Shown: piece after piece, positions 2,353 through 50,363 of the stretch
Layout of the letters: every line of letters begins with the position of its first letter
Position numbering within the stretch: position 1 is the first letter of the stretch
Source: Nemertoderma westbladi
Lineage: Eukaryota > Animalia > Xenacoelomorpha
Assembly: GCA_032718475.1 (NCBI GenBank)
Contig: JAUCBJ010007164.1
Coordinates: forward strand, 6,303-70,302
Direction: 5' to 3'
DNA length: 64,000 bases
The notes under the pieces: model-generated
What the model saw: the letters and a program-made list of their open reading frames with translations, nothing else
Told to the model about the DNA's origin: nothing
Database searches by the model: none
Translations under genes and position numbers: made by a program

Positions 2353-5123
2353 ACATTATACAGTACATTTAAATTAACTGTAATAAGGGTTTAAGGGTTC
2401 CTTTCAGTCATCGGTTTATTCAATGTGCATATTATCAAGGACTAGTACAGTAGAAGACCTCCCAAAAACTCAACAATAAGATAATAATACGAAATGGATG
2501 AAGGTTTTAATTTCAACCCATCATTATTAGCGGTAGACTGACTAGAGACTGTCGATGGATTACCGTCTGAACAAAGTTTTGCTGCCGCTGAATGTTTTAT
2601 GGCCAATGGTCTACAGTAGTATGTACAGTATATCTGCCAAGTTTCAGCTTGAACGGATAACAAATAACGAAAAAAATTTCGGTTACCGCACGAAAAATAC
2701 CTGATATGCCTCTGAACTAAACATATTGTAGGGCCTACTCAACTCCACATCCAAAATAGCGATATAGATTGAGACTTGTATGGTTTTGGGGCAACTTTAT
2801 AATTTGCTATATAATTTTTTATTTGTTTATTTTCAAAAATTTTCACATGATGGGTGCAAGGTGAAACGTTTAGTGTATTTGGGTGGAAGTGGAGTGGAGT
2901 GTAGTTGAGCGGATGTGGAGTGGAGTTTGGTGAAAGTGAGTCAAAGTGGGTGACATTCGGGTGGAAAGTTGGGTGTACTGTAGTAGGTAAAAACAAGTAG
3001 TATTTTTTTTAAGAAAAAAATTATAGAGACATAAATTCAAGCACTATAAATTCAGTTATTCAAGCAGTTTGTCCCCGATTCGCCCCACCTTTAAGTCCAT
3101 TCGCACCATATGACTTTATTTAATGTTTTACAAATGCTGTAATATCAACATCAATATCAAATCAAATCTATTATTCTGTTATTCCAATATCAAAAACAAT
3201 ATAGGACATTTCAAAGTTAACACTGTTGTAATACAGTATGCATAGTGCTCTATAATAATATATATAATTAACAACTATACTGTGGTTGGATATGGATAGT
3301 ACAGCTAACAGAAGGCAAACTACAGTCCGTGATGCCATCTCAGATTCTCAACTACTGTACATGTCCAATGATCCTTAACGGATCACATGATGATTTTCGA
3401 ATGGATGAAATGTCTGAAAGTTAATTACACTTCTCCCATTTCGTTGTTTGTAATCAATTAGGCTGAATATTGGCATAACCTACTGTACATATAATGTATG
3501 TACAGTACTAGAGACCACAGGCCAGGTCTATATGATTACGTTGATCAACATACGCAATTATCTACCTTAGTTTGATGAATTATTATTTCTACTACAGTAA
3601 GATCTGTACTGTATAACGATCTTATCGATTCTCGTAAAGATCTTCGCCATTTCTGTCATCGCATGTGATACAAGTTCTTTGCAGAATTTCTCTTGACATG
3701 AACAGATCTTACCAGATCACATTTTAATTTATCAAAAATGTAAGAAGTTCTAAAAAAATTTCCGCTGTTTCGTTGCAAATTAATTAATATAAAGGTCATG
3801 AAATTTAAAATAAAACTGCTGAAAATACAGTGTCACAATTGTTTTTCTTGTATTCTACAGTATAATACATTTAAAGGATAATTACATTATTATAAGTGCA
3901 TAAAACATACTGTATGTATAACAAATAGAACTTAAGTCCATTAACTTTGTACTAATTACTGTACAGTATATACATTGCCATTCCTTATTACAGCAGAAGT
4001 TTCCAATGCGGTCGTTAAGGCTACGTGACCCTCCTGTGTATCAATACCGTTTTAATTTCCACCGCAACACCACAGCGCCAGTTTAGTTTGTACTGTAGCT
4101 TCATTAAGTTGGTGGTATGTAAAGGTATCTGGATCGTCTCTGTCTCTGTCTCTGTCTCTCCTTTGTATACATATTGTTATATTCATCAAAATTCCAGATC
4201 AAATAGGCCTACGCAATCATTTCCTTAGCAACGTTCATTCGACGTCATCTCATAAACGTTAGATATTCGTTCTAAAATGGTGCGGGTCGATTCGCCCCTC
4301 GACCTATTCTCAACAAGTCTATTCCGGCCTATTCGAAGAAAGAGTCGCAGCCCCCCCCCCCCCCCCAAGACATTATAGTACTGTAGTTTAATAGCTATGG
4401 AGTTTTACTATCCTCCTACCACATTTTCACACATGCGAGTCCATTATACCAACTACAGTAATTCCATTATTATTAATTAATTTCTCATGTATTTGTATTG
4501 TACCACATTGTGTAATTGAGCATATTATTTTTTGCAGTTGGTTGTGGCCCTTGTATGTAAGTGTTTGCTTTATTTTATATATCATCTTAATGTGGGAAAT
4601 ATATATACTGTTTATTCAATTCCAGTATTCGCCCCAGTAATATAATATACAGTATGTAATATAATAATGAATAGGGTCTATACTATGACTCACTACTGTA
4701 TCACTGTTCAAATATTTTTAGCAAATTGAGGTATCATTTTTTATCATTCTAATTCAAAAAATCGAATTATAAAGGCAACAGGTGCACATGTTGGCTAGTG
4801 CGATAATTTACAAATTACAATTACGTGTACTGTACAGCTGTGTAGTATATTGCATACATAGTCCGACAATAGCAGATATATTATTAATGACAACAGCATT
4901 GCCAAACTCATGGCATAGCTGACACACATAGCATACCTAATATAATCGCACAATAAAACAAATTCCCTCCACCAAGAGTAATATTGCACTTATTATAAAC
5001 ATTGCACATATATACTGTATACGATATTCAATATAACCTACAGTACTGTACTTGCTCCTAAATACAATCGTACTGCACCGTTTACAGCAGCCCGCTTCCA
5101 ATCCAAGCTAACGCTGATGGTCC

Positions 5124-6323
5124 TGTAAAAGCTTTTGCGGATATAATCAGTCCCCTTGCCCGCAAAGTACCGTTGTAGGTGTTTTAACGGACATAGAAGT
5201 CATTCTTCTATATGTGTGCTTTGGCGGACATGGCAAGGCACAAAACCCGCAATGCGTCAAATCCTCTAGCACAGTGTAGCCTTGATGATTCAGATTACGA
5301 CATCTAACAGCTGGTTGTTGGCATGGAAACGGCCGTTGGACACATGGTTCTTTGTTTAGCTTAACAGCCAATCAGGGCGATTTTTACTGTCGATGTGGAG
5401 ATATTCTACAGATCGTGCTAGGCGTGTTCAGTCTTACTGTTTTCTGTGTTATAGTTTTGTTGTTTCTATCTAGGCCAAGAACACCGGCTCTAGAGTCAGT
5501 TCGTTTTCAGACTTTAGAAGAAACATTAGTAGGCTTAGATTATAGAACGTATAACTGTTATCAACCCAATTATCAGCGCAGTAGCGCAGCGGTACCATCT
5601 GATATTGTTATAATCTTAACCTACCGTCTTAATGCTTTTACTGTTGTTATTATTTGTATCAGTTGGTTGAATATTATTACTTGGAGAACATCGATAAATA
5701 ACCCAAATTTCCCAATTTTCTTGATACACTACAGGTTAGAGAGACAGGTTACATATAGCGATTGCGACTTATATTATCGTGGTTTGTAGTGAATTTAATG
5801 CTATTTGATAAGCACTACATGAGTCAATTGCTGTTCTCTTTATGTATGATAAAATTCATTGACGGTCGGCAGATTAGTGTGCAGTATTGTGCGTTACCGG
5901 TAGTGTGCATGATTGTGGCTGATAACTAAGCATTTCCTAAAGAATGCGCCTCATACGTGAATCATAAGCCTTACCGTCTTACCGTTGTGTTTAGTATAAG
6001 TCATATCTCTGTTTACCTAGATAGAGCGCCACGTCCTAAAGGAACTGTTAATATTTCCCGAAAGTGAATAATATTTGTCAGAAATTATTTATTAACGATC
6101 AATCGAATAATACAGTAAGCTTACACTGCAATAAAATCTAAGCCCTCCGAATCCAGTCTCCCGGGTATATCCAGCGGGTGAATGGACGCGCACTAGGCTG
6201 GCTTCGGCTAATGTTGTGTTTATTGGTATTAAATACTTGTCATATGCTAAAGTCTATTTATAAACCAAAAGACATATAAATTTTGGCAGGTTAAACTGCT
6301 AAAGGTCTTCAAAAGCGCGTACA
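5124..6323 (+). repeat. 5' LTR of BEL copy 1 (1200 bp)
   Basis: Direct repeat of 22486-23685 (about 4 substitutions seen by eye); CCAAT box near 5369, AATAAA near 6131. Confidence 0.96.
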
Positions 6324-6334
6324 ATAACAGTTAT
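6324..6334 (+). promoter_or_regulatory. Non-tRNA primer-binding site complementary to LTR segment 5551-5561
   Basis: ATAACAGTTAT directly after the LTR end; no TGG; it is the reverse complement of ATAACTGTTAT at 5551-5561. Confidence 0.7.
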
Positions 6335-6689
6335 TGTCTTTATTGCAGTAAGCAATAAAGTTGAAAGTACCGGTCGACCGGTAAACCTGAACCGGTACTG
6401 CTGTAGGTCCGTAGGCCCAACTGCCAGAATCGGTACTGCTGTAGGTCCGTAGGCCTAACTGCCTGAACCGGTACTGCTGTAGGTCTGTAGGCCCAACTAA
6501 CCTAACCGGTACTTCCAGTATAAGTACATTAGTATTATTCGATTTTGATTATTGTATACCGGTAGGTCTTAGTACTTAATCAGGGAACGGCCGCCCTGGT
6601 TTTTTATTGAGATTCTACTTATTTCTGTCGGTTTTATTTACATGTAAGTTAATATTGAGCTGAAGACGTGTAAGTCTGCTCAGATTGTT

Positions 6690-7270
6690 CAGATAATTGT
6701 AGGCTGGACTGTTGTTGGACTGTTGTTGGGTCTGGAGAGATTGCGGCGTGTGTAGAGTCTGTCCGATAAAGTGCCAGTTAGTAAGTTGGGGCATCTTGAG
6801 TTGTAAGGTCAACCCCCTCCTAAAGAATAAGTCGTACTACCGTGTTAGAACGCATACTAACTAACCATTTTGGAATCTGCATATACTGTAGTTTATTTAG
6901 GCTTGATAGTAGTCTGCCAGCGTTTTAGCCTGTGTGTTTGTTTGTGTGGTCTGTTCAGGTACCGTAATAGTTATTACTCAGATATTTTGTAGGCTGGATT
7001 GTTGTCTGGCTGTTGTTGGGTCTGGAGAGATTGCGGCGTATGTAGAGTCTGTCCGATAAAGTGCCAGTTAGTAAGTTGGGGCATCTTGAGTTGTAAGGTC
7101 AACCCCCTCCTAAAGAATAAGTCGTACTACCGTGTTAGAACGCATACTAACTAACCATTTCGGAATCTGCACATACTGTAGTTTATTTAGGCTTGGTGGT
7201 AGTCTGCCAGCGTTTGGTTTGTATTTTGTTTGAGTATTCTGTACGGGTAGCGTAATATTTATTATTCAGA
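6690..7270 (+). repeat. ~290-bp tandem duplication in the BEL 5' leader
   Basis: TCTGGAGAGATTGCGGCG...GTAGTCTGCCAGCG recurs at 6731 and 7021; an equivalent duplication is present in copy 2 (~40715-41290). Confidence 0.88.
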
Positions 7271-8564: not shown

Positions 8565-9581
8565 ATGTCTGACACAAAGCAAAACCTGTCAGACAGTCTA
8601 ATCGATACAACCATCTGTGACACAGATAGGAGTGTGGAGCGATTAAGAAAGGGGTTCAGCTCACTTCCTACTGAAAGAAAAGTCATCCCTCCAGTAGTAG
8701 TATCAGACCCTAGGCTAATCCAACACCGTAGGTCTATCATCGGCACTCGGGCCCAGGTCAAACGGAACCAAGAGGCAGCTGTCCAACAGCAGCAACATCC
8801 TAGTCAAGAAACTCGTTCCCAGCGACCCGATAGCTCCAGTAGTTCGGATACTGTAGAGCTGACCCCCGAACGCAGAGTGAAGATGGCGGCTACAGCCTAT
8901 TCGGATCCCCTTCTCACCCTTCCTGCCGCAGTACTAACTACTATATTGATTGCGGTGGAGGAACACCAAGGCGATTGGGCGAGAAGTAAGCGAGCGACCC
9001 AAGATAGTTATGCGGGATACGCCAGGGAAGAATTGATGTCTATTGTCGAGTCACAATGGAACTTTCCCGGACTCGGACTCCCGTTAGATTTGTCCGAAGC
9101 TACTTGGGAAGACATACACAGGATGGGAGTGACTAAAGATACGATGGATCCAGCTGTTTGGAAGAGGTCGGCAGCAGGATATGTGCAGGGATTCTTCGGC
9201 TCCTTAGAGCGATTAGAAGAACAACTGTTTCGACAACCCCAAGGACCTCAAGAGCAGGAAGAGCTGCTATATCAAGTACACGAAAGAACCCTACGCATTA
9301 GACTAATCCTATCAGCCTTTGAGGAAACTTCCAAAAGAAGACAGGACACGTCGCTGCAAGTTGCTGTCAAGACTTGGTTCCAGCGGGTAGGTCTCAAAGT
9401 ACAAGAAACGGCCCAGTGGAAATCCCAGCTGGCTGAGAGACCAACCTATGAAGAATCAACCGATGCCACCTTTTCTCAAGTGGAAAGCGAAGTGACCGCA
9501 GAGAGACCGCGAACGAGAGACGCCATAGACATCTATCTGTCAGATTATCAACGTTGGACTCAATCGATGCGGAAAGGTTAG
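8565..9581 (+). CDS. gag: N-terminal part of BEL Gag (frameshifted relative to the main ORF)
   Basis: Begins MSDTKQNLSDSL, matching the start of copy 2 Gag (MSDTKRALSDSL), which is in frame with the Gag core; overlaps the next ORF in the -1 frame. Confidence 0.7.
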   Translation: MSDTKQNLSDSLIDTTICDTDRSVERLRKGFSSLPTERKVIPPVVVSDPRLIQHRRSIIGTRAQVKRNQEAAVQQQQHPSQETRSQRPDSSSSSDTVELTPERRVKMAATAYSDPLLTLPAAVLTTILIAVEEHQGDWARSKRATQDSYAGYAREELMSIVESQWNFPGLGLPLDLSEATWEDIHRMGVTKDTMDPAVWKRSAAGYVQGFFGSLERLEEQLFRQPQGPQEQEELLYQVHERTLRIRLILSAFEETSKRRQDTSLQVAVKTWFQRVGLKVQETAQWKSQLAERPTYEESTDATFSQVESEVTAERPRTRDAIDIYLSDYQRWTQSMRKG

Positions 9582-12500
9582 CTGCAAACCAAGCTAAATT
9601 TGATGAAAAACTCCGCCTCGCTAGAGTCCAGGAAGAACAAGTAAAGAAAAAACGGATAGAGGACCGAAAGGCAGCAGCAGTAGCAGCGGCAATGGCAGAA
9701 GCGGAAGCGGCAAAAGCGGCAGCGGCAGTGAAATCCGCAGCAGCAAAGGCAATGGCAGAAGCGGAAGCGGCAAAAGCAGCAGCAGCAAAGGCAGTGGCAG
9801 AAGCAGAACGGAGAGCGTCTGAAGAGACTACCCAACTGGAGTTGGAAAATCTGCAAGAGACGCAAGACTGCATAAATAAACAGTTAACTGCTAGTCAAAT
9901 GCAGATGATGAGTCGATCTACTCCCAAACGCCAAGGATACACATCATCGGAGGAAGGCGAGACCACCGATCCTGAAGGCGGAGGAAATAGATCTCGTCTA
10001 AGCAGGCGTAGAAAAACATCTCACCGTCACAAATTGCCTGATTTGCCCTCAGCGGTTAGAAGACAACTAGCTAGCACAGACTTAGGTAGTACAGAACCCA
10101 CAGACCAAATTATTAAGGTCAAAAGACTCCCTATGATAGTTGATGAGCCTGAAATAATTAGGCCTGTCGTTCCCAAAGCCACTCCTGTGCTAGAGAACCC
10201 TGTACTTCCAGTGCTTAACTCTAAATTCCCTCTACACAGTATTACACTGCCTGTACCCGGTAGAACAGTCCATGCGAATATCCCTGTCCTGGACACTGAG
10301 AGAGAAATCAAAGATTTGTCTCCCGTCGTCCCGCGTTGGCCCGCTACAATGTTGGCGACTCCCGCTTCGGCGGTTGAGTGGGTAGAGGAGGGACGGCGGG
10401 GGATGAATCTCCTGCTCGGACAGATGCAGGAGACTGTCCACCAACTTAAGGGAACAGTAAGGGAAAGTAGGTTAGAATTGCAAGAAGTGCAGCAAAGCAT
10501 CGCGCTAGAACGCGACAAATTAGTCAATATACAAAAGGGTATACCAATACCCCCTGTAACATTGTGTCAACCTGTTAGGTCTGAAGTATTACATGCGCAA
10601 GGTGTGGAGCCTACACGCATCTATACTGCTAGTGAAGTAGAAACTCCTATAGCAAACCCTATTAAGGGTGATTATAAACCTGTTGTTAATGATATTCCCT
10701 ATAGACTTGATAATAATAACACGATGGCCCAAGAAAGCTTTACACGTCAGATGGCTAGAACAGAAGCCCGCCAAGCGGTCAAAGTGGGAGAGATCGTCAA
10801 ATTCAATGGAGATGAGATGAAATGGTTACCTTTCAATGAATATTACAAAGATAGCATACAGAACTCTGTACTATCTAACGGAGAGAAGCTTAGATTCCTC
10901 ATCAAGTGTTTGGAAGGACCTCCCAAGTTAATGGCGTTAAAGTTTATTGGACACCCAGATGGATTAAGACAAGTTTGGGATACATTAAACACCAGGTATG
11001 GTAACAAGGATAACATAGCTAAGTATTTGTATGCAAAATTAGTAGCCCCCAGAAACTTCCTTAGTAGCGGGATTATAGAGTTTTCCGATGAGATTCAGGA
11101 GATCTGTAGACAATTGGACTGGTTAGGTAAGTCTCATGAATATCAGAGTTCCATGGTTATTGGAGCAGTAGTCTCTACTTTACCAAAGGGTGGAGTATGT
11201 ACACGCTGGGACAAGAAAGTGTTGTATATGAATGAGCAGCAACGACGAAGCCCTACCATGGCTGATCTCATGTCCTTCTTAGATGGTGAAGTAAAACTAC
11301 AACTCATCAAGCAGTCCAGAGAGAAAACATCGGAAAATAAGGTAAGTGAGAAACCCGTTTCTAGGAGAAGAGTAACACCAGTGTGTTACACTGACGACGG
11401 CGAAAGCCAAGCTTCTCAAGAAGAAGACAGCGGGAAAGACACTGACCGATTTTACTACGTTAACAAAACCTCAAAGGACGTAAGTAAATACAAGGCTCGA
11501 ACCAAAGATAGGAGAGAACAGGTTGCCAAGACTCCTCCTCAGTCTCCTAACAGAATGCACGGAAGAAAGCCCGAAGAAAGAACGAGAGTGCATCACGTTA
11601 CCCAAGGTAAAGTGAGTAACACCAAACCAAACTGTGCGCTGTGCGACGGGCCCCACCGTTTGAGTGCGTGTGCTGAATTTCTAAAGAAATCCCTTGTAGA
11701 CAGACGTGCAGTCATGTGGGATAAGCGGTTATGCTATAATTGCCTCAGATCAGGACACCAATGGCGAACCTGTTACTCTGACGTAAAGTGTGCAAAGTGT
11801 GGCGCGAAACATCACATCTTGTTACACAGTGAGTTCGAACGAGACAACCCGAGTCAGGTAAGTGAGCCCGAACTACATGTCCAATTCAGTGATGTAAATG
11901 ACACTGATCAAGAGTCTGAGATGGAAGGATTCTATACTGACGAATTCTCCGACGCCAACGAATCCTGTTACCTAATAAATACCGCAGTATATCGAGCACT
12001 TACTTACGAAAAGGACACCGACAATGAGTTCCCCCCAACTACCTTTGCCAGACAACCATCTTGGAAAGCTCCAACTTCCAACGTAGGAATCAGAGAATTT
12101 CCTGTAGTGCAGGTAAGAGTTCACGGTCCCAACAAAAGTTACATAGTGAACGCCCTCCTTGACTCCGGCAGCACAGGAACATTCATCGATCAAGAACTAG
12201 CCGAAGATATCTTTGCTGGACAACCCAAATTCCGGACTAAATTGAATATGTCAGGAATTATGCAGGTTTGGAAATCTACCATAACGGCAGATTACTATGT
12301 AGGTGCGTTGTCTACCCCTCAGGATAAATTAGGAGCACAAAGTATAAGGTCAGTAAAAATGGTGGCTATAAAGAACTTCGCTACTACCCAAGTAGAACCT
12401 TATAACTGGGACGAGGATGAGAGCATCCAACAGCTTAAGATACCTCGATTCCAGACAGATTATCCTGGAGTGCAAATACTCATCGGCCAAAACGCGCATG

Positions 12501-13816
12501 AGGCGCTCGAGACATTGGAGAAACGGCCTGCTCAACCGCAGCCACTACAAACCTATGCGGTAAGAACTAGAGTAGGTTGGTACTTTACTGGACCTTCCCG
12601 CAGAACTCTCGAAGAGAGAATGCCACAAGAACGAATATATCAAGTAAACGATTGGGAAGTGGAGAGCAGTGAGGTGGACGAACTAACTGAGGGAACACCA
12701 TACTCCTCAGATAATGACGACATCTATCAACTCTTCGATGAAGAGAACACAATCGACCTACTTACAGAAAACAAAACTTGGAAAAACCAGGTGAACCTAT
12801 GTCAACTGATTCGCCCATCGGGACCCATTGATTACAATGACGAACTAAATGATGAGATAGAGCGCTACAACGCTAGAACTCGGGACGAACTCGCCGTACG
12901 ATTCTTTACTCAAGAATTGGTAGAGCCCAATTCATACGATAAGGCCCTATCGATAGAAGAAGAAAGAGCCAAGCAAATCCAGGAAACAACTACACGTTTT
13001 TTAAAAGATCAAGGTAGATATGAAATCGGCCTACCATTTCGAAAACGAGAACCTAGATTTATAAATAACAGACCCTTGGCAGAGAAAAGAATCACTCAAT
13101 TACATCGACGCCTTACGGCTAATGCTTCAGCTAAAGAAATGTACCAAACTCAATTGAAGAAATTTATTACAAAGGGATACGCGGAGCGTGTACCGGAAGG
13201 AACACCAGTAACTGAGAGAACGTATTACTTAACACATCATTACGTTCCCAAACCCGGTAAACCCCATGAAGTACGAGTCGTATTCGATGGCTCCGCTCTA
13301 TATATGGGCCAATCCCTCAATTCCGAGTTGTTACCAGGACCCAACTTACTTCAATCTTTGTTGGGAATACTTTTAAGATTAAGACAATATTCCATTGCGT
13401 TCGCCTCCGATATAGAAGGAATGTTCTTACAAGCCAAGGCGCTGGATAGAGATAGAGACAGCCTAAGATTTCTGTGGTGGCCTGAAGGAGATCTCAACCA
13501 GAAACCGGTAGAGTACTGGATGACCATCCAGGCTTTTGGGATCATATCAAGCCCTTCCAACGCCTGCTCCGTGGTGCGGACCACTGCGAATGACAACCGA
13601 GACGCCTTCTCCAAAGAGGTGATAGACAACATCAAGCGCGATATATACATGGACGACAATTTAAAGTCCCTTCCATCAGTAGAAGAAGCCATTGATGTCG
13701 CGAAAGGAACGGTAGAGTGTTTGAAAAGAGGTGGATTTCGACTGACGAAATTCACCAGCAACTCCCGTGAGTTTCTGGAAGCGATACCGGTAGAAGACCG
13801 AGAACGAAAGACCTAG
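9554..13816 (+). CDS. gag-pol: BEL/Pao Gag-protease-RT polyprotein
   Basis: Ala-rich coiled-coil repeat; FNGDEMKW gag core; three BEL-type Zn knuckles (CALCDGPH..C, CYNCLRSGH..C, CAKCGAKHH..LH); protease ALLDSGS; RT RVVFDGS, DIEGMFLQ, YMDD. Confidence 0.93.
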   Translation: MDSIDAERLAANQAKFDEKLRLARVQEEQVKKKRIEDRKAAAVAAAMAEAEAAKAAAAVKSAAAKAMAEAEAAKAAAAKAVAEAERRASEETTQLELENLQETQDCINKQLTASQMQMMSRSTPKRQGYTSSEEGETTDPEGGGNRSRLSRRRKTSHRHKLPDLPSAVRRQLASTDLGSTEPTDQIIKVKRLPMIVDEPEIIRPVVPKATPVLENPVLPVLNSKFPLHSITLPVPGRTVHANIPVLDTEREIKDLSPVVPRWPATMLATPASAVEWVEEGRRGMNLLLGQMQETVHQLKGTVRESRLELQEVQQSIALERDKLVNIQKGIPIPPVTLCQPVRSEVLHAQGVEPTRIYTASEVETPIANPIKGDYKPVVNDIPYRLDNNNTMAQESFTRQMARTEARQAVKVGEIVKFNGDEMKWLPFNEYYKDSIQNSVLSNGEKLRFLIKCLEGPPKLMALKFIGHPDGLRQVWDTLNTRYGNKDNIAKYLYAKLVAPRNFLSSGIIEFSDEIQEICRQLDWLGKSHEYQSSMVIGAVVSTLPKGGVCTRWDKKVLYMNEQQRRSPTMADLMSFLDGEVKLQLIKQSREKTSENKVSEKPVSRRRVTPVCYTDDGESQASQEEDSGKDTDRFYYVNKTSKDVSKYKARTKDRREQVAKTPPQSPNRMHGRKPEERTRVHHVTQGKVSNTKPNCALCDGPHRLSACAEFLKKSLVDRRAVMWDKRLCYNCLRSGHQWRTCYSDVKCAKCGAKHHILLHSEFERDNPSQVSEPELHVQFSDVNDTDQESEMEGFYTDEFSDANESCYLINTAVYRALTYEKDTDNEFPPTTFARQPSWKAPTSNVGIREFPVVQVRVHGPNKSYIVNALLDSGSTGTFIDQELAEDIFAGQPKFRTKLNMSGIMQVWKSTITADYYVGALSTPQDKLGAQSIRSVKMVAIKNFATTQVEPYNWDEDESIQQLKIPRFQTDYPGVQILIGQNAHEALETLEKRPAQPQPLQTYAVRTRVGWYFTGPSRRTLEERMPQERIYQVNDWEVESSEVDELTEGTPYSSDNDDIYQLFDEENTIDLLTENKTWKNQVNLCQLIRPSGPIDYNDELNDEIERYNARTRDELAVRFFTQELVEPNSYDKALSIEEERAKQIQETTTRFLKDQGRYEIGLPFRKREPRFINNRPLAEKRITQLHRRLTANASAKEMYQTQLKKFITKGYAERVPEGTPVTERTYYLTHHYVPKPGKPHEVRVVFDGSALYMGQSLNSELLPGPNLLQSLLGILLRLRQYSIAFASDIEGMFLQAKALDRDRDSLRFLWWPEGDLNQKPVEYWMTIQAFGIISSPSNACSVVRTTANDNRDAFSKEVIDNIKRDIYMDDNLKSLPSVEEAIDVAKGTVECLKRGGFRLTKFTSNSREFLEAIPVEDRERKT

Positions 13817-16530
13817 ACTTAATAAAGGACGATCTTCCAGAAACCAAGACGCTTGGCTTGAAGTGGGACACAGAAAGAGATATCCTGTTTTTTCAGCTAA
13901 AGCAGCGAGATAATCCAGTTCGGACCAAGCGGATTTGTTTAAGTATCCTGAGCACTTATTTCGACCCATTGGGATTTATTAGCCCAGTTATATTGATTGC
14001 TCGGAGTTTAGTACAACAAATGTGGCTTGAAAACCACTCATGGGACGATCCACTTAAAGGAGAACTGTTAAAGAAGTGGATGAAATGGGAAGATTCTCTA
14101 CCTGCCATCGAGAGCTTTGTAATTTCCCGTGCATATTTTGGTCATGTTCTTCCTACGTATTCCTATCAACTCCATGTGTTTGGAGACGCCAGCGACATGG
14201 GAATAGGTATAGTAGCATATCTGCGAGTCGAAACTCCGGATGGAATCAAAGTCGCCTTGGTTACCTCTAAGGCATTGATTAACAACAAGCTAAAGGTTCC
14301 TCGAGTGGAGTTAAAAGCGGCTTTATACGCTACAGCCATCGGCCGGAACGTAACAGAACAAATCGACTATCCACTGGAGAAAACTGTTTATTGGACCGAC
14401 GCTTTACTCGTGTTGGAGTATATAACCAATGAAGTCTGTCAGTTCAGCGTTTTTGTTACTAACAGGGTAGCTATTATTCTTAGTCGCACAAAGATAGATC
14501 AATGGAGACATTGCCCCGGTACGATTAATCCCGCCGATATCGCCTCCAGGGGAGCAACTCCACAGGAACTGATAGATACTCCAGACTGGTTGGGTGGACC
14601 CGACTTCCTGAGTAAGGAAGAGGATGAATGGCCTCCTCACCTTACTACGGCGGAGATTAGACAAGCCAAGGGAGCGGAGAAAGTCAAACCTAAAACCCGG
14701 GCGAGTAAATCGAAGTTATTTAAACCGACTATCGATCTATCTGTATTACATACTTCCGGAAACGATGCTTCGGATCCACAATCCCTCGCCACAAATAAGT
14801 CTGTTGTGGAAATTAGAGATAGAGATTGGAAATCTGGAACACCAGACGTCTCGCAAGGAATCTCACCCCTGCTGCAGAGAGCAATGCATCACTACAGTTC
14901 CTGGAATCGGCTCTGTAAAGCCGTCACATATTTAAGGCGATGTTTTCATCATCACTACTCCAGGACGAAGACCATTAGTGATACCGCTCCATTGACATAT
15001 GCGCAAGTTCATGTTATTAAAAATTTACCCAAATATAAGACATCCGACCGGTTTCTAAAGGAGAAAATCAGTTACCAGGAGCATGAAGAAACCAATAAGC
15101 AGATACTGAGACTCCTGCAATGCTATGAGGATTCCGATAAGTATTTCCTGTTGTTGAGAAATCCGCAGATGCGCTTAAGGGATCGCTTCTCTAGCACAAT
15201 GATAGATGGGTTAATACGTGTTGGAGGAAGGCTCACCAATGCGCCATTATCCTTTGACACTAAATTCCCCATACTCATTAGAAATCTTGAAGTACAAATC
15301 AAGATGATTGTAGATGTTCACAGTAAACTTTATCATGCTGGTAGAGAACGAGTTCTTAGCGAAATTCGAACTCGCTATTATTTTGATAAACCCCGTAGAG
15401 CTCTGAACCAAGTTCTTAGGAACTGCATACCCTGTAGGAAAGCATTCAGTAGGCCTTTAACACAGCGAGAGGCAGAATTACCTAGGGAACGAGTAAGCTT
15501 CTATGAACCACCTTTTACTAATACTGGTGTAGATTTATTTGGCCCTATTGAAGTATATCGTGCTAGGACTATAGTCAAGAGATGGTGTGTCATCTTCGTA
15601 TGCATGACTTGTAGAGCCATCCATCTCGATATGGTGAACGATCTATCTACCAACAGCTTCGTATTAAGTTTACGCCGACAGATCGCTCGCTTCGGGACTA
15701 GTAATACCATGAGATCGGATAAGGGAACGAACTTCATTGGTGCCAACAACGAAATCCAGGCTTACGTGAAGGACTGGAACCAAAGACAGGTGGACGATCA
15801 GCTAAGGATAACAGCGTCTAGCTGGACCTTCAACGCCGCCGACGCCCCTTGGTGGGGAGGAAGTTGGGAGAGATTAATTAGAAGTGTCAAGACCGCATTT
15901 CACTTTATAGTGCCATGCCGCGCGTATCTCACCGACGAACTTTTGCGGACGTTAATGGAGGAAATAGCTGCCTATCTCAATGAGAGACCGCTTATGCCAG
16001 TCTTATCGAGTCCCGATTCCCTGGAAGCGCTAACACCCGCGCACTTTCTACTGAAGAAACCTGTAGCCATGCTCCCACGATTGGAGATTACCGACGGAGA
16101 CGAATACTGCCGTCGAACTTGGCAACTTATGCAGTTGCTATCTCGTCGTTTCGCTGACCATTTCGAGAAACATTATCTGCCCACGCTACAACTTCGAACT
16201 AAGTGGTTTGCGCAGCAAGAAAACGTCAGCGCCGGAGATATGGTGCTTATTGTAGATTCAGACCTTCCACGTAAACGGTGGCAGACAGGTCGTATCATCG
16301 AGACTCACATCTCGGATTATGGTTTAGTACGCTCGGTAGAACTCGTCGTCATGCGGCGTAACTTCAAGAAGCCAGGCATAATCTTTGAGACGCAACAACT
16401 CAACCGCCCAGTTGGTCGTTTATGTTTACTGGAAAGAGACCGAGAACTCTCCGGAAACTATGGAAGGCAAGACACTCTTCCCACGACCACCTCCCTAATT
16501 CCTCAAACATCTAGGGACTCCCCAACGTGA
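13801..16530 (+). CDS. pol: BEL/Pao RT C-terminus, RNase H and integrase
   Basis: Frame opens RTKDLDLIKDDLPETKTLGLKW; RNase H FGDAS/ELKA/WTDA; NPADIASRG; integrase H-H-C-C, GVDLFGP, SDKGTNF, GSWERLIR; 1-nt frameshift near 13800. Confidence 0.93.
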   Translation, partial: RTKDLDLIKDDLPETKTLGLKWDTERDILFFQLKQRDNPVRTKRICLSILSTYFDPLGFISPVILIARSLVQQMWLENHSWDDPLKGELLKKWMKWEDSLPAIESFVISRAYFGHVLPTYSYQLHVFGDASDMGIGIVAYLRVETPDGIKVALVTSKALINNKLKVPRVELKAALYATAIGRNVTEQIDYPLEKTVYWTDALLVLEYITNEVCQFSVFVTNRVAIILSRTKIDQWRHCPGTINPADIASRGATPQELIDTPDWLGGPDFLSKEEDEWPPHLTTAEIRQAKGAEKVKPKTRASKSKLFKPTIDLSVLHTSGNDASDPQSLATNKSVVEIRDRDWKSGTPDVSQGISPLLQRAMHHYSSWNRLCKAVTYLRRCFHHHYSRTKTISDTAPLTYAQVHVIKNLPKYKTSDRFLKEKISYQEHEETNKQILRLLQCYEDSDKYFLLLRNPQMRLRDRFSSTMIDGLIRVGGRLTNAPLSFDTKFPILIRNLEVQIKMIVDVHSKLYHAGRERVLSEIRTRYYFDKPRRALNQVLRNCIPCRKAFSRPLTQREAELPRERVSFYEPPFTNTGVDLFGPIEVYRARTIVKRWCVIFVCMTCRAIHLDMVNDLSTNSFVLSLRRQIARFGTSNTMRSDKGTNFIGANNEIQAYVKDWNQRQVDDQLRITASSWTFNAADAPWWGGSWERLIRSVKTAFHFIVPCRAYLTDELLRTLMEEIAAYLNERPLMPVLSSPDSLEALTPAHFLLKKPVAMLPRLEITDGDEYCRRTWQLMQLLSRRFADHFEKHYLPTLQLRTKWFAQQENVSAGDMVLIVDSDLPRKRWQTGRIIETHISDYGLVRSVELVVMRRNFKKPGIIFETQQLNRPVGRLCLLERDRELSGNYGRQDTLPTTTSLIPQTSRDSPT

Positions 16531-18147
16531 TACGTCTGGAGTGGGTGCATGACTATATTATTCTATCTATTTTTATTATATTTTATATGAGAACGTTATT
16601 ATGTACTTTATTATAATCGTTTTATTTAATTTTATTTAGTAGAATGTTATTTTAGATTATTTAGTAGGTTAGTGCAATATATTAGTGTTTATTACGTAAT
16701 TACACATAATATATTTAATATGACGGCGAGAAATAATTCTTTCTTTTTCCTTACTGTCCGTATTATATTATAAATACGAGACTACATGTAAGATGACATG
16801 TCAGTACTTATTAAAGAACAATAAAGCTCCTGCTATATTTAAGTATTATCGGTAGGCAGAGTATTAGGAATGCAAAGTTCAGATCCTCGTGTCTCGGCTA
16901 AACCAAGCTCTGGGTAGACCTTGGAAACGACTTGCCTCTTCACACTGACATTGCTTCGTGCGATATTGCTCTTCTACTTTATATTAAATAATACATATAG
17001 TAGCGTGATGTCCCTATAACAGTAGCGTAAAACGCAAATAAATCTGTTAAACCTTTTGACCATCTGTAATTTTAGTCGATTAAGATATCGCGGCACCCAC
17101 CGATATACTTGAAAGACAAATTCTAGAATCAGTGGTTAACGTCCCCAGACAAGTTCTGGAATAAATCGGTGCCTATCTTAAATATTAATTTAATATTTAT
17201 TAAAATCTGTAAAATGCAGATCCTTTAAAATTTCTAGTCAATTAAGATATCGCAGCACTTACCGATACTCTTAAAAGACAATTTTATAGAATTAAGGATC
17301 CTAGGTCCCCAGACATGCTCTGGAATAAAATTGTGCCAATTTTACCATCAAATAATAAAATTCACGGGAATAAAGTTAAATTCATATCTTAAATGAATTT
17401 CATAAATTGTCATTTTGTGCAATTTATAACATTCCCAAAATTCCATTAATTAATAGATCATGGGAGCGGAGATTCATCCTATTGAGTGTATTAGAGTGCG
17501 AGAATCTCCAACATATAGTCAATAGCCGATAAAATTAATAAAATCATGTATAAAGAGGATATTGACAATTAAAGAATTACTATTAAATAGCATTCCAGAT
17601 CTGTATGCATGAGAATTACCCTAATTCTACCGCTAGCTTTCCATAATGTCACCATAGCAACACCCACGCTAGAATTAGAAGCAAGTTAAAAGAACAATAG
17701 AAAGCTTGTCCCATTGCATAGCATAGAGAATACATAGCACACTGTTAGTATCCAAGGATACACAGTAATAACGTGACATTCTGGAAGGCACTGACTAACG
17801 GACAAATGGCCTGTATGTGTACAATTGGTGACAGTTGTGTTGGAATTTGTGCGTTATAGGTGAATGTTACTGCTAAAGTATGTTTACAGTAGCTAGTCGC
17901 AATTGTAAAAGTAGCCCAACTCTCCTATAGAAAGAACCTAAAGTGGATCCAAGCCTTTGGGACGGACAGTGGAGTGACTTGTGCCGGTTATCGTTGTCGT
18001 GCTGTTGCTACATGTTGGCGTAAACACCGCGACGACGGTACATCGGCGCTGAGAATCCCACTGTCCGGGGGCAACGAGAGGTAGGCAGCGACGCCCGCTA
18101 GCCTAAACATAAACTCATTTCGATATTAATAAACTCAGATAGCAGAT

Positions 18148-21100
18148 ATGACGGAGTTGATAGAAGATGATCTTGGTATCAGGGAGCGATATACTCTACC
18201 TTTACAAGCATTTGTGGATAGCTTGATACGCGGTGAAGCCGATCCAACCATTACGGAGGGCGATGGTCGTTATATCGAACCGCCGATGTCCCAAGAGCAA
18301 CTTACGCGTGAATTGGACTATCGAAAATTCACCACTCGCTATACGCATCGTAATGGTACGTATATGGACTTCTTAACTACCGGCCATCCTATCGATTTAC
18401 ATGATACGGACGATGTAGACACCGAAAGGGAAATGGTTCTATTTAAATATCATACCCAGCGGAGTCGTAACGATAAACCGAGAATAGAACACGAAAATTC
18501 TATTCGTAACAGACTGGAAAGAGAAAACGTTGAAGAACCGGATAAAAGCATCGACTTCAACGACTACCTGGAATTTTTGAGAGAAACCTATCTCAACATC
18601 GCCAGTCAGCAGAACCTAGAGACTCGATATCCTCAAGGTATACATCATGACCCTATTGTAGAACTCAAACGGCTCTATTTCACTATGATGTATCTTACCG
18701 CCGATCGTCCACTACCTGTTATCCCGGATAGTTTTGAACAAATGGAAGAATATTGTAAAACTGGAGAACGATCACCCGCGTTTCCTCTACAGGACGTACG
18801 TCTTTGGTATTATTGTGACGAATGCCCTAGACCCAACCAACAAACTGAAAGACATAAACATCCGCGGAGACGTTGCGCTAAACACAGTTTTACGCGTTAT
18901 ACTTACGGGAGTTTCGAGCGAAACATGTTCGACGTATCACCTACGATCGCTCGTCTTAAACGATCACTGAATAAACCCATGATCAGAGTTCCGGAATACT
19001 CGGTCAGGCCTCCTCATTCCCTAGTGAGACCTCAAACTCTTGATCCTAACAGTATCACTGATCCTCCCGAACTCTATTCACTGTTCAAAGATTTAGTGCT
19101 ACCCGAACAATTAATCGGTGGTGCTCCGGTAGTGGGTTCGTTAGACATTCGCCCATCCTACTTAGCCGGATTGGGACGCGGGCATCTAATATCGCCATTT
19201 GATCCTTACAATCGTCCAGGATTAAACCCGATGCAACCCGCCACGGAAGTCGAGGAGAGCGTTATAAGAAACGCTTTAGACGCTATTCGACAGAAGATCG
19301 GAAAGGGAACACAAGATTGTTTAGAGAAACGTAAATTACAACAACAAGTCCAATCGGTGAAGGAGTTAGCCTTGCCACAGTTCGATAGAGAATCCAAAAC
19401 CTCGAGGAGGACATCGAGCTTGGACGCACGTATTCTCTACAAGAGTTTCTAGATGAACGCTTACCGAGACAAGCGGAAGAAAATCTACTCGAGGAGAAAC
19501 ACATGAAAATGGACGAGAGAGAAGAAGCCGCTTTAGCCCAACCCAAAGCTCAAATCCTTATGACAGATCTCTACTCTAAAACCGTCCGTCATCCCTCGAT
19601 GGTTCCACATTTCGGAGACAAACTCTTCGCGACGATACAACCCCAACCGGTTGATATCAGTACAGGATCGCAAAATCTTATCGCTGACGCCCCTATGTTA
19701 CAGCGTCCGCCGATCGAGGCGGCTCGTGTTGACGGTATACTCGTTGAACCTCCGGACAATCGATCGGATCTTGTCCGTCGTATGGTACACGATGTCAACA
19801 TACGCGCTAGACCTTTACAGAACTCGTTTTATGGGATTAAAGACCACCCTTATTACGTTAATCTGACTCAGTATTATATGGTAAAACCAGAAGACCCGAC
19901 GCATAATTTAAAGTTTCTACCACTAATAAATCCTCTAGACGTTGTCGAACTCGAACAATTGCAGAAACATCTGGATCAGTTAGTAAAGGTAAACTCATTC
20001 AGAAAACCATATAACATTTCTCGAATCGAGAAGGATATAAAACCTCCTTATAATCTCGATGGATTTATTAAAACTCGATTAGTCCATTGGAATCTAGATG
20101 TATTATTTGAAGAAGAGAAAATACAAAGATATGGAAATGTGGAGACGTATACCACTCGGCACATGAAGTATAGTGATCTCCCTGACGCTAACCAATGCGC
20201 CACCTTGTGGCATCCAGTAGGGATGACCCTAGAGAACGCCACCAAAGAGTGGAATGAAACTCTTAATGTCATTGAGATGTATGGAGTTGTCACCTACGAT
20301 AATGAAGGTAGCGTTCCGGTCGGGGAACTAGGAACTACGCGCATGATCCACATACGCGGATTAGCTGGTTCTACCCACGTGTTTACTCGAGCGTGTTCCG
20401 ACGTGATTGATTATTCCTTTGAAACTCTCACCGAAACGCAAAAGAATCTCCGACATGGACAATTCGAACTCGCGCAGCGTTACGTCATTGACACCGAACG
20501 CAAACCGGCCATGGGTATCGATGGATCGATGTTACCCCAGCCCGTACTCGAGATGTTGTTCAACGAAAGAATCCTTAAAATCGGCTCAGCTGTTTATGGA
20601 GATCTCCAAAACGCAAAACGACTTTCGGAATATGGAAAATATCCCATATCCTTTCGTGGATACGCAGCTGATTGCTCCCTGGGCAGAAGGTCGAGGTTTC
20701 TTTCGCACCATGTATGCTAATACGTCCAGCAGCATTACAAAGGTGCAACGAACTTCCATCGGACATCTTGCCTTTCAGGAATACGGATGGAATTTCAAAG
20801 TCGGAAATCCCATCAACTATCAACAAGTATACGGAGACCATTATTCTCGATTATACTTTGATGGACCATTGACCGCACCTGGCGCCATGTATAGCTTCAT
20901 GAGTGTTCCACTCCGTCCCTCCTTAGCTATCTACACGATCTTTGAAAACACCGCACTTTCCGGTTGGCTAGCCGATGTGTGCAGTCGTACTATACGCGCC
21001 CATCCATTAATACTTGGGACCAAACTCGCTAAGCTAGATGAACATAATAAATTCCTCCGCTTCGAATGTTTCCGGCGATTTTTAACCCCGTTCCGCAACG

Positions 21101-22407
21101 TGGATAGCCAATTTAAAGACCGCGCTTTGACCAAGCTCAGCCTAAGAAACTCAGCTGCAGAGAAGTTAGATAGCGCTGGATTTGCCATTTTCAAAGAGAT
21201 TTGTATATCGAACTTGCACTCCTCTGTTATACAAAGACCTCGAATCCCCACAGGTTATTCTGTCGTGGAAATTCAGACAATAGGTCCACTTGAAGAGACA
21301 GACACGCCCACCTCAGTTATGCACTGGGAAGACGAACCAATATGCCTAGAATCTGAGGAGATTCAGCCTATCGCGCCCCGGAACAGCGACAACGATTACA
21401 TCCTAGAATGGTATCAAGGTCCACAGTGTCTCACTGCGTACGATTATCGACATGCCAACTATGTTTCTAGGCAACGTTGTCGGTTATGCGCATCGAGAGA
21501 CCATGTTACGCCCATGGACACAAACGTCCGCTGTTCCTATTTCCAAGAACAACCGACGATGGAAATTTATTGCGCATATTGCAGACTCAATAACTTGCAT
21601 ATTTTTGCGGTTTGCCCTCAATTTATGACTCAATGTCAACATTGTCAACTAAAGGGACACGCCAGTTTCGATTGCCCTTTTAATCACGATTTGGAAAGCG
21701 TAGATGAAATGATCACACTACGTTACATCAGAGCTTGGGAAGCGAACGCTGATTTACATTGTGATTCGCGCCATCGCTATTATCTTGGACGCGCTTACGA
21801 AGGAGTTTATGCGTTCCATCCTTATCTATTCGCTTCTGTCGAACAGAAATCACGCATATCGAGTTACGAACTACTGAAGCGCGTCGGAGAATGTATTTCA
21901 ACCAAGTTCGTACGCAAATTTCTCAGGAGTGTTAATCCTAGCGACCTTCATTCATATAACCTAATCAATTTTATCCGTCAGGATCCGGACTATGGAGACC
22001 TATTTGTTAACTCACACCCCGAGTTACAGGAAGTATATCGACGGCCTTACGAATACCGAGCCCGCGAACGCGAGTTGGAAAGAACCATTAAACCCAGGAA
22101 GTTTCTGACTGCCTATGGTCCACCCACGGCTCTCGTTCAGACCACTTGTAAAGGACCCGTAAGAGCGGCTGTCCTAAAACGCGCTCTCAAGGCCGTTAGA
22201 CCCCTCTCCCCCGACGTTGATGTCAATCAACCCGGCACTTCGACTGGCGGATACACCGACCATAATCCTACACCCTCTGATGCAATCATATTGCACCCTT
22301 CACCCAGGAGTTATAGCCCTCCTTGTAAAGTGGCTCGCCCCAAAGAGAAAAAGACTCTGGCCAGCTTTAAAAAACTGCGTAAACGCCGTCCACGCAAGAA
22401 AGACTAA
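18148..22407 (+). CDS. Accessory ORF of the BEL element (split into 18148-19452, 19503-20720, 20407-22407): DEDDy 3'-5' exonuclease domain plus CCHC zinc knuckles
   Basis: ExoI-like VVTYDNEG; ExoII-like LPQPVLEMLFNERILKIGSAVYGD; FVDTQ and SIGHLA; ExoIII-like PLRPSLAIYTIFE; three C-x2-C..H..C motifs; basic C-terminus KKLRKRRPRKKD. Confidence 0.72.
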
Positions 22408-22476: not shown

Positions 22477-22485
22477 TGGGAGCGG
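22477..22485 (+). promoter_or_regulatory. Short atypical polypurine tract TGGGAGCGG
   Basis: Abuts the 3' LTR; identical in copy 2 (49111-49119). Confidence 0.7.
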
Positions 22486-23685
22486 TGTAAAAGCTTTTGC
22501 GGATATAATCAGTCCCCTTGCCCGCAAAGTACCGTTGTAGGTGTGTTAACGGACATAGAAGTCATTCTTCTATATGTGTGCTTTGGCGGACATGGCAAGG
22601 CACAAAACCCGCAATGCGTCAAATCCTCTAGCACAGTGTAGCCTTGATGATTCAGATTACGACATCTAACAGCTGGTTGCTGGCATGGAAACGGCCGTTG
22701 GACACATGGTTCTTTGTTTAGCTTAACAGCCAATCAGGGCGATTTTTACTGTCGATGTGGAGATATTCTACAGATCGTGCTAGGCGTGTTCAGTCTTACT
22801 GTTTTCTGTGTTATAGTTTTGTTGTTTCTATCTAGGCCAAGAACACCGGCTCTAGAGTCAGTTCGTTTTCAGACTTTAGAAGAAACATTAGTAGGCTTAG
22901 ATTATAGAACGTATAACTGTTATCAACCCAATTATCAGCGCAGTAGCGCAGCGGTACCATCTGATATTGTTATAATCTTAACCTACCGTCTTAATGCTTT
23001 TACTGTTGTTATTATTTGTATCAGTTGGTTGAATATTATTACTTGGAGAACATCGATAAATAACCCAAATTTCCCAATTTTCTTGATACACTACAGGTTA
23101 GAGAGACAGGTTACATATAGCGATTGCGACTTATATTATCGTGGTTTGTAGTGAATTTAATGCTATTTGATAAGCACTACATGAGTCAATTGCTGTTCTC
23201 TTGATGTATGATAAAATTCATTGACGGTCGGCAGATTAGTGTTCAGTATTGTGCGTTACCGGTAGTGTGCATGATTGTGGCTGATAACTAAGCATTTCCT
23301 AAAGAATGCGCCTCATACGTGAATCATAAGCCTTACCGTCTTACCGTTGTGTTTAGTATAAGTCATATCTCTGTTTACCTAGATAGAGCGCCACGTCCTA
23401 AAGGAACTGTTAATATTTCCCGAAAGTGAATAATATTTGTCAGAAATTATTTATTAACGATCAATCGAATAATACAGTAAGCTTACACTGCAATAAAATC
23501 TAAGCCCTCCGAATCCAGTCTCCCGGGTATATCCAGCGGGTGAATGGACGCGCACTAGGCTGGCTTCGGCTAATGTTGTGTTTATTGGTATTAAATACTT
23601 GTCATATGCTAAAGTCTATTTATAAACCAAAAGACATATAAATTTTGGCAGGTTAAACTGCTAAAGGTCTTCAAAAGCGCGTACA
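22486..23685 (+). repeat. 3' LTR of BEL copy 1
   Basis: Matches 5124-6323; followed by TSD GGTCC. Confidence 0.96.
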
Positions 23686-26587: not shown

Positions 26588-26605
26588 TGGCGCAGTGTGT
26601 AGGAT
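26588..26605 (+). promoter_or_regulatory. Canonical tRNA PBS of the Gypsy element (TGGCGCAGTGTGTAGGAT, probably tRNA-Ser type)
   Basis: TGG start 2 nt after the LTR end; resembles TGGCGCAG-type Ser PBSs; tRNA identity not verified. Confidence 0.7.
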
Positions 26606-39213: not shown

Positions 39214-40423
39214 TGTAAAAGCTTTTGCTGAATTGTCCAGTTATTTTTCCTTATTTTTCCCGTAAAATACTCTGTAGTTGGTTTACCAGGCATAAAAAGG
39301 CCGTGTCCTTGCTGTACTGGTGTTTTAGCGGACATAAAAGCTATTTCTTCTGTATTTGTACTTTAGAGGACATAATCCGTAATTCCGTGACGTAAAAGCT
39401 CGATACTCTTGAAAACAGTGTCGCTACCATGACGACGGCTAGCAGCTGATATTGCCACGTCGACGTTTCTTTGTTTCTTTGTTCTCTCGTTGTTCAGGTT
39501 GACCAATCAGAGCGTTTGTTGTCTCTGTGTTGGAGGTATACAGAAACTCAGTAGTTCAGTGTTATGTTTTGCCCAGAGCCTAAGAACCGGCTTTTGGCAC
39601 CTCCGTGTTTTCAGTTTTTAGTCCTACACTAGTAGGCTTAATTATAAGGACATATATCCGTTATCACTGATGTCTGATGACTGATGTCTGCATACTGCAT
39701 ACTGCAGTACTGCATACACTGCATACTGTGTAACACTGTGCATACTTTATATTGTTATACTGCTATTTACTGTCAGTTCTTCATAATATGGTTGATGAAT
39801 TATTATATTTGGAATAACGACAAATAACCCCGAAAACCCAATATTCTTGATATACCGAAGGTAAGAGAGAAAGGTTACAGATAAATGATTGCGACCTATG
39901 TTGAGTGGTTTGAAGTGAATCTAATGTTATTTGATAGACCCTACATGATTCGGTCCGTGTTCCTTTTATATGTGACTAAAATCAGTGAAGATCGGCAGAT
40001 CAGTGTGCAGTATTGTGCAGCATTGTGTATGAGTGAGACTGATAACGAAGCATTTCCTAAAGAATGCGCCATATATGTGAATTGTAACTAAGCCATATCG
40101 TTGTGAGTAGTTTAAGTCATAACTCTTTTTATATAGATAGAGCGCCACGTCCTAAAGGAACTGTTAATATTTCCCGAAGGTGAATAATATTGTCAGAGAT
40201 TATATAATACTGTCAGTCGAATAATACATTAGGCTTACATAGCAATAAAATTAAGCCGTCGAACCCAATCTCCCGGGTATATCCAGCGGGTGAATGATCG
40301 CGCACAGATTGGTTTCGACTAGTGTAGTGAATTAAATACTTGTCATAGACTAAAGGTGATTTATTATCTAGAAGACATCCTAATTTGGCGGGTTAAACTG
40401 CCAAAGGTCTGAAAGCGCGAACA

Positions 40424-40435
40424 ATAACGGATATA
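40424..40435 (+). promoter_or_regulatory. Non-tRNA PBS of copy 2, complementary to LTR segment 39653-39664
   Basis: ATAACGGATATA is the reverse complement of TATATCCGTTAT. Confidence 0.72.
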
Positions 40436-49050: not shown

Positions 49051-50363
49051 GTATCTTTATGTTTTAGAAACTGTGATTTTTATATTTTATAGACTGAAAA
49101 TCCCATTTTCTGGGAGCGGTGTAAAAGCTTTTGCTGAATTGTCCGGTTATTTTTCCTTATTTTTCCCGTAAAATACTCTGTAGTTGGTTTACCAGGCATA
49201 AAAAGGCCGTGTCCTTGCTGTACTGGTGTTTTAGCGGACATAAAAGCTATTTCTTTTGTACTTTAGTATTTAACTTTAATTAACTTGTATTTGTACTTTA
49301 GAGGACATAATCCGTAATTCCGTGACGTAAAAGCTCGATACTCTTGAAAACAGTGTCGCTACCATGACGACGGCTAGCAGCTGATATTGCCACGTCGACG
49401 TTTCTTTGTTTCTTTGTTCTCTCGTTGTTCAGGTTGACCAATCAGAGCGTTTGTTGTCTCTGTGTTGGAGGTATACAGAAACTCAGTAGTTCAGTGTTAT
49501 GTTTTGCCCAGAGCCTAAGAACCGGCTTTTGGCACCTCCGTGTTTTCAGTTTTTAGTCCTACACTAGTAGGCTTAATTATAAGAACATATATCCGTTATC
49601 ACTGATGTCTGATGACTGATGTCTGCATACTGCATACTGCAGTACTGCATACACTGCATACTGTGTAACACTGTGCATACTTTATATTGTTATACTGCTA
49701 TTTACTGTCAGTTCTTCATAATATGGTTGATGAATTATTATATTTGGAATAACGACAAATAACCCCGAAAACCCAATATTCTTGATATACCGAAGGTAAG
49801 AGAGAAAGGTTACAGATAAATGATTGCGACCTATGTTGAGTGGTTTGAAGTGAATCTAATGTTATTTGATAGACCCTACATGATTCGGTCCGTGTTCCTT
49901 TTATATGTGACTAAAATCAGTGAAGATCGGCAGATCAGTGTGCAGTATTGTGCAGCATTGTGTATGAGTGAGACTGATAACGAAGCATTTCCTAAAGAAT
50001 GCGCCATATATGTGAATTGTAACTAAGCCATATCGTTGTGAGTAGTTTAAGTCATAACTCTTTTTATATAGATAGAGCGCCACGTCCTAAAGGAACTGTT
50101 AATATTTCCCGAAGGTGAATAATATTGTCAGAGATTATATAATACTGTCAGTCGAATAATACATTAGGCTTACATAGCAATAAAATTAAGCCGTCGAACC
50201 CAATCTCCCGGGTATATCCAGCGGGTGAATGATCGCGCACAGATTGGTTTCGACTAGTGTAGTGAATTAAATACTTGTCATAGACTAAAGGTGATTTATT
50301 ATCTAGAAGACATCCTAATTTGGCGGGTTAAACTGCCAAAGGTCTGAAAGCGCGAACAGCGCA

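Follow-up and report, generated by a model that had tools for sequence, protein, structure and literature searches.

Self-priming of reverse transcription has been reported for the Tf1/sushi and Tcn1 groups of LTR retrotransposons (partial texts of PMC6317226, PMC4600332, PMC10085805 and PMC5341516), and cutting of the Tf1 primer by RNase H has been reported (PMC7175516, partial text). Both groups, together with Tf1 and Tf2 of Schizosaccharomyces pombe and Tj1, are Ty3/gypsy chromoviruses. In plants, self-priming was predicted from sequence for the Ty1/copia elements TAR, Houba and Osr-1, so that more than one origin of the trait is already assumed (PMC6317226, partial text). For the BEL/Pao superfamily, the ICTV Belpaoviridae profile gives a genome of 4.2-10 kb and a tRNA-Arg or tRNA-Gly site of 18 nt; replication is described there as poorly understood and is presumed to be tRNA-primed (PMC8742986). 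Self-priming of a BEL/Pao element was, in the original prediction, not known to have been described, and literature searches returned no report of it; most subscription papers, Repbase reports and supplements lay outside the scope of these searches. Neither tRNA nor self-priming turned up in a term look-up in PMC3118150 and PMC554778.

The window (the whole stretch of DNA analysed, 64,000 nt) contains two related BEL/Pao elements, copy 1 (5124-23685) and copy 2 (39214-50358). LTRs of the TG...CA type, a purine tract and a target-site duplication were found in both. The LTR pair of copy 1 differs by 4 substitutions in 1200 positions with no gaps, and that of copy 2 by 3 substitutions and 29 gap columns; with so few substitutions, and with 5-bp target duplications, both copies are young. 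Pfam matches on the elements were DUF1759, Peptidase_A17, Integrase_H2C2 and DUF5641, and the same set was found on homologues. As judged from protein sequence, this domain set (Gag DUF1759, a Pao-type RNase H/Peptidase_A17 region, an integrase after RT-RH, and DUF5641) indicates BEL/Pao (Belpaoviridae). By eye, the RNase H region carries four acidic residues where RNase H motifs normally place them. In copy 1 the reading frame shifts to the next ORF within 13771-13816, and another frame change lies near 9452-9581. Membership of the Tf1/sushi group is contradicted by the BEL/Pao domains, and no chromodomain match was obtained with Pfam. A site of 18 nt that complements the 3' end of a tRNA, as in the ICTV profile, was not found, TGG being absent after both 5' LTRs. 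This is a departure from described Belpaoviridae and gives no ground to doubt the protein-based assignment. Coordinates are collected in Table 1.

Table 1. Positions of the features discussed in the text, numbered along the window.
Feature	Position	Strand	Remarks
Copy 1 5' target-site duplication GGTCC	5119..5123	+	second occurrence 23686-23690
Copy 1 5' LTR	5124..6323	+	TG...CA, 1200 bp
Conserved TTTTCAG word, initiator-like or acceptor-like	5504..5510	+	homologue 39608-39614; candidate start of the RNA, some 40 nt before the primer
Upstream helix strand	5522..5530	+	forms 9 bp with 6207-6215; copies differ by 2 compensatory and 1 one-sided change
Strand pairing with 5953-5958	5547..5552	+	6 bp, 1 compensatory change; competes with primer start
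Copy 1 putative self-primer	5551..5561	+	predicted 3' end 5561
Anti-primer strand	5920..5926	+	pairs with 5557-5563; predicted mask of primer segment in 3' LTR RNA copy
First AATAAA region	6128..6135	+	may form the third duplex of a Tf1-like pretzel with leader 6339-6346
U5-IR-like stem, 5' strand	6186..6191	+	pairs with 6315-6320; 6 bp, 1 compensatory change
Second conserved poly(A)-signal-like word, ATTAAA	6228..6233	+	copy 2: 40331
Copy 1 primer-binding site	6324..6334	+	ATAACAGTTAT; no TGG, no spacer; exact reverse complement of 5551-5561
9-bp leader hairpin just past primer-binding site	6338..6360	+	same sequence in both copies
Copy 1 ORF: Gag (DUF1759), protease, RT (YMDD)	9452..13816	+	
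Copy 1 ORF: RNase H region (Pfam Peptidase_A17), integrase, DUF5641	13771..16530	+	
Three extra copy 1 ORFs	18133..22407	+	no transmembrane segments; mostly deleted in copy 2
Purine-rich tract preceding copy 1 3' LTR	22478..22485	+	identical in copy 2
Copy 1 3' LTR	22486..23685	+	
TGG of tRNA-type primer site, Gypsy-type element	26588..26590	+	internal contrast
Copy 2 target duplication GCGCA	39209-39213 and 50359-50363		5 bp as in copy 1
Copy 2 5' LTR	39214..40423	+	
Copy 2 putative self-primer	39653..39664	+	
Copy 2 primer-binding site	40424..40435	+	ATAACGGATATA; exact reverse complement of 39653-39664
Copy 2 3' LTR	49120..50358	+	

Copies 1 and 2 represent subfamilies, with an identity of about 79% across the 3' half of the LTR and of 70% across LTR and leader. 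The family occurs in great abundance, 8256 contigs of one run and 1954 of another aligning to 961 LTR bases. The nearest proteins to those of copy 1 are just 30-41% identical (approximate values). Exact DNA patterns of the family matched 0 stretches in metagenome_contigs and viral_contigs, and the family RT query retrieved 0 loci from viral_contigs. Copy 1 measures 18.6 kb, against the 4.2-10 kb of the ICTV profile, and has a long leader with tandem repeats of about 290 nt (6689-7270) and a long non-coding stretch downstream of pol. None of its three extra ORFs is envelope-like. The middle one (19389-20720) has a probable 3'-5' (DEDDy-type) exonuclease domain (Atlas score 0.93), which apparently runs on into the next frame (the start of 20407-22407) and is followed by a zinc knuckle.

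The bases following each 5' LTR were inspected, and no TGG of a tRNA-type site was present in either copy. The 11 nt at this place in copy 1 and the 12 nt in copy 2 are each an exact reverse complement of a segment of the element's own LTR. The two LTR segments are homologous, falling in the same aligned columns (LTR positions 428 in copy 1 and 441 in copy 2). Pairing ends at the LTR boundary, since a start one base earlier leaves just 7 and 6 nt. Two base pairs differ between the copies; both differences are compensatory, and the duplex holds no G-U pairs. The missing TGG, the exact complements at a homologous LTR site, the stop at the LTR boundary and the two compensatory pairs had been described in the original prediction and stood up to checking, as did the presence of a normal TGG site in the neighbouring Gypsy-type element, where it lies two bases past the LTR end. 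Throughout the window the complement occurs in the two LTRs of each copy and nowhere else. The arrangement is that of Tf1, with a site flush with the LTR, a perfect LTR complement and a 3' end facing U5. In both copies the complement is contiguous, and is not of the type assembled across the splice joint of an LTR intron.

The Gypsy-type element (26439-52332) has a truncated 5' LTR and is the host of BEL copy 2. It is broken by a 147/167-bp satellite array (about 28100-36700) as well as by copy 2, and part of it is duplicated in inverted orientation (27475-28560 and 36247-37297). Elsewhere in the window, a single uninterrupted ORF at 55160-56389 encodes FARP/FRMD7-like FERM N, M and C domains, the best matches being just 50% identical.

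The complementarity of primer site and LTR is real and non-random. Complements of at least 11 nt were obtained from 7 of 16128 internal start positions in copy 1, and complements of at least 12 nt from 1 of 8658 in copy 2, which places the chance rate at about 1e-4 to 4e-4 per copy. When two substitutions were simulated on each strand, perfect pairing persisted in 532 of 164203 cases. The primer duplex was the sole Watson-Crick helix of at least 10 bp common to the two LTR-leader regions, and none appeared in 30 column shuffles. In three control regions the counts of such helices were 3, 0 and 0, with no compensatory pairs; these regions are more conserved and thus have fewer chances to co-vary. 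The copy 1 site is near-palindromic; taken alone, copy 1 can also be read as a 10/11 direct repeat or as a local hairpin (6321-6337, folding P about 0.9). The copy 2 site is not palindromic, and the inverted relation is therefore the conserved one.

Contigs from four runs, one of them possibly from the window's own source, were aligned to 6285-6372. Differences from copy 1 concentrate from 6335 on, immediately past the 11th base of the site; within 6324-6334 a single substitution was tabulated, at 6334 in one shallow contig. Two further site types were seen among 18 of the 37 loose-end rows: the copy 2 type altered at position 5 (two runs) and the copy 1 type with one additional base (three runs). 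With the window copies, the family has at least four primer-site types; those from contigs are unphased with the LTR site and show variety and not covariation, the phased comparison being that of the two window copies. A tRNA-primed site is recopied from the tRNA in every cycle and hence stays fixed. The variety within this family suits a self-encoded primer and fits a fixed tRNA poorly. At the U5 stem, the allele shares at 6186 and 6320 agreed roughly in two of the four runs (0.46 vs 0.52; 0.47 vs 0.55) and disagreed in two shallow ones (0.19 vs 0.50; 0.85 vs 0.48); these shares reflect one inherited change. In the loose ends of two runs, a variant of the leader hairpin, which holds a third AATAAA, carried a matched stem-preserving change (unphased).

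The comparison was extended to related families, as the original prediction had proposed. Eighty-one distant BEL/Pao loci were fetched, and a 5' LTR end could be called in 17 of them, in six by LTR alignment and in eleven by a motif following CA; the motif was derived partly from the first loci, and the sample is not blind. Contiguous and spliced complements to the own LTR were sought at offsets of 0-5, which takes in spacers of 3-4 nt. In this non-blind sample, 9 of the 17 sites paired with their own LTR over 11-15 nt; with the sites shuffled, 1 of 380 trials gave a pairing of 11 nt. One locus (L004) has a contiguous 11-nt complement. The other eight (L001, L016, L017, L018, L034, L036, L051 and L060, all from metagenomes and with non-TGG sites) have their 11-15-nt complements only across the joint of an LTR intron (GTAAGT or GTGAGT ... 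AG), and represent six independent families on the tree. Among the eight loci with no complement, four had TGG-type sites and four had little LTR sequence in the contig. A blind scan for contiguous matches at all CA-preceded positions of the fetched loci gave no excess. Three loci (L010, L013 and L057) carry tRNA-type TGG sites after a 3-4-nt spacer, and both priming types therefore coexist in the superfamily. In a tree of 41 rows, a branch with support 96/86 holds the splice-joint loci and excludes copy 1, which forms a long branch of no settled place; self-complementary sites are thus present in no fewer than two distant parts of BEL/Pao. Exon 1 supplies just 4-10 of the paired bases in the spliced loci, a hint that their primers may be internal.

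Minus-strand synthesis in the window family is probably primed, after a nick, by an LTR-derived RNA ending at 5561 and not by a host tRNA. This tRNA-independent self-priming, the central proposal of the original prediction, is favoured by a duplex that is exact, LTR-flush and co-varying, by the variable site within the family and by the self-complementary sites of distant BEL elements. The RNA would start at 5551 or at most about 50 nt upstream, and its segment 5551-5561 would pair with the primer-binding site beside the U5 stem. A nick after 5561, most likely made by the RNase H of the element as reported for Tf1, would free a 3'-OH, which the RT would extend into U5 and R. Under the standard scheme of LTR replication, the next primer-binding site would then be a plus-strand copy of the attached primer, and this would account for the perfect, wobble-free covariation. 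For the RNA copy of the 3' LTR, folding predicts that the segment is masked by the helix 5557-5563/5920-5926 and by others, so that the 3' R template would be spared from cutting.

Signs from folding and from motifs point both ways as to whether the primer is formed by the first 11 nt of the transcript, as in Tf1. The helices that use 5522-5552 co-vary between the copies, which indicates that this sequence is structured in some RNA. Their place of action would be either the 3' end of the transcript or an RNA with an upstream start, for example at the TTTTCAG word, and they raise the possibility of a longer leader whose 3' end is the primer. We consider the two forms of primer about equally probable. 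A TATA-like word precedes the primer by about 10 nt, a spacing that would be too short for a start at 5551; if this word is a TATA box, transcription would begin downstream of the primer, and this is the main hint for a case against self-priming. Formation of the primer at a poly(A) site was rejected, neither AATAAA nor ATTAAA being present upstream of 5561 in either LTR. Donor-like and acceptor-like words are conserved inside the LTR (5735-6021; about 39861-40137 in copy 2). An LTR intron at 5735-6021 acting as a switch was rejected for now, with no such joint among the 7 joints listed and no restoration of the copy 1 duplex on blocking. A hypervariable stretch (5564-5612) starts two bases past the primer 3' end; copy 2 has short tandem repeats there, and contig depth drops about 70-fold.

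RNAs of about 800 nt were folded, and the P values given here are model outputs that are sensitive to the RNA ends and carry limited weight. From the primer start to just past the site, the duplex had a P of 0.92 in copy 1 and 0.96 in copy 2; with starts up to 10 nt from the primer and the same end, the ranges were 0.92-0.96 and 0.96-0.98. When the copy 1 RNA was lengthened to 6420 the P fell to 0.002, and forcing the duplex cost 4.6 kcal/mol; with starts at least 20 nt upstream of the primer it was 0.0. The copy 2 duplex survived starts 30-40 nt upstream and was lost at 60 nt. In folds of the 3' LTR RNA, the masking helix had a P of 0.97 (copy 1) and 0.88 (copy 2). The primer duplex is free of wobble pairs, and neighbouring helices show G-U pairs or one-sided changes. 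The U5 stem and the 8-bp duplex 6128-6135/6339-6346 are candidate equivalents of the two side duplexes of the Tf1 pretzel (PMC10085805, partial text). No covariation was seen in the 8-bp duplex, and the 9-bp leader hairpin competes with it. A ribozyme or other known RNA family was rejected: Rfam gave no match across 5100-8600 at E up to 1, and a three-way junction lacked, by eye, the hammerhead core.

It is unlikely, on our assessment, that the duplex is real but serves another purpose, the 3' LTR copy of 5551-5561 (then part of U3) pairing with the 5' leader so that the genome RNA forms a circle or a dimer, while an unseen RNA acts as primer. The CYC elements of Ty1 are a parallel for such circularisation. 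The TATA-like word just upstream of the primer, the many further conserved long-range helices of the LTR and the defeat of the copy 1 duplex in several folds would all suit a structural role. Against such a role stand the precise, LTR-flush position of the duplex at the place of a primer site, with no other primer site present, and its freedom from wobble in contrast to the neighbouring helices. The segment is, moreover, predicted to be masked in the 3' LTR RNA, and the complement that exists in 8 of 17 distant loci only after LTR-intron splicing points to RNA of the 5' LTR. An origin of the match by chance in an AT-rich LTR is barely credible: the copy 1 site is indeed AT-rich and near-palindromic, but the start-position rates, the shared-helix shuffles, the simulated covariation and the shuffles of distant loci all speak against it.

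Two further readings concern the source of the primer. Half-tRNA primers are known in Ty1/copia (PMC6317226, partial text), and a host small RNA (a tRNA half, a set of isoacceptors or another RNA) could prime here, the LTR match being a by-product or a decoy. We rate this as very unlikely given at least four site types in one family, an LTR site that changes in step in the two phased copies, the missing TGG and the lack of Rfam matches in 5100-8600 at E up to 1; the 64-kb window holds no tRNA genes. Self-priming might also do without an RNase H nick: a second, shortened transcript would be trimmed as far as the protected duplex, for example by the 3'-5' exonuclease-like ORF of the element. The resemblance of ORF 19389-20720 to such exonucleases (Atlas 0.93; Pfam DNA_pol_A_exo1 on 12-40% of its cluster members) and the presence of similar DEDDy-type ORFs in other LTR elements, those of rotifers (PMC5408684, partial text), lend this some colour. 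It is nevertheless highly improbable: the ORF itself has neither a Pfam nor a PDB match, most of the ORF region is missing from copy 2, and nothing links the exonuclease-like ORF to priming. Priming by a nicked LTR-derived RNA is thus the reading preferred here.

If this is true, a mechanism shown solely for fission-yeast Gypsy elements would extend to a third LTR superfamily and to animals, in a young, high-copy family. Annotation based on tRNA sites would miss or mislabel such elements, which could also escape host control exerted through tRNAs or tRNA fragments. From the duplex one would predict that the RNA begins at 5551 or slightly upstream, that it is cut after 5561 and that strong-stop DNA carries LTR-derived RNA. 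It is possible, but in our view rather doubtful, that self-priming is widespread across BEL/Pao in a form unlike that of Tf1. A longer leader, of about 50 nt in the window family, would then supply the primer with its 3' end, and every lineage would possess a device that restricts use to the 5' copy: in some families an LTR intron, in the window family a conserved primer-masking RNA switch of the 3' LTR copy.

The window family resembles canonical Belpaoviridae in the set and order of its domains, its TG...CA LTRs, its 5-bp target duplication and its purine tract. With the fungal GalEa Conserved Hairpin Site it shares the absence of a tRNA site and a hairpin directly past the 5' LTR; an LTR complement, exact and co-varying in the window family, is not reported for GalEa (PMC5445492, partial text). 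With TAR, Houba and Osr-1 it has in common that self-priming is predicted from sequence, in their case in another superfamily and kingdom. The closest likeness in the primer site is to the Tf1 group, whose 11-nt site is complementary to the own LTR and directly follows the terminal CA (partial texts of PMC7175516, PMC4600332 and PMC10085805). The first five bases of the site are identical in Tf1 and both window copies (PMC11042837, partial text), and candidate flanking duplexes on either side of the site recall the three-duplex pretzel of Tf1 (PMC10085805, partial text). Unlike the Tf1 group, the family has BEL/Pao and not Gypsy proteins, an LTR of 1.2 kb with about 760 nt separating primer from site, a competing helix that is predicted to mask the primer segment and a transcript start that may lie upstream; it is known here from sequence alone. 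The family is therefore not a member of Tf1/sushi, yet on the testable features it appears to work like Tf1.
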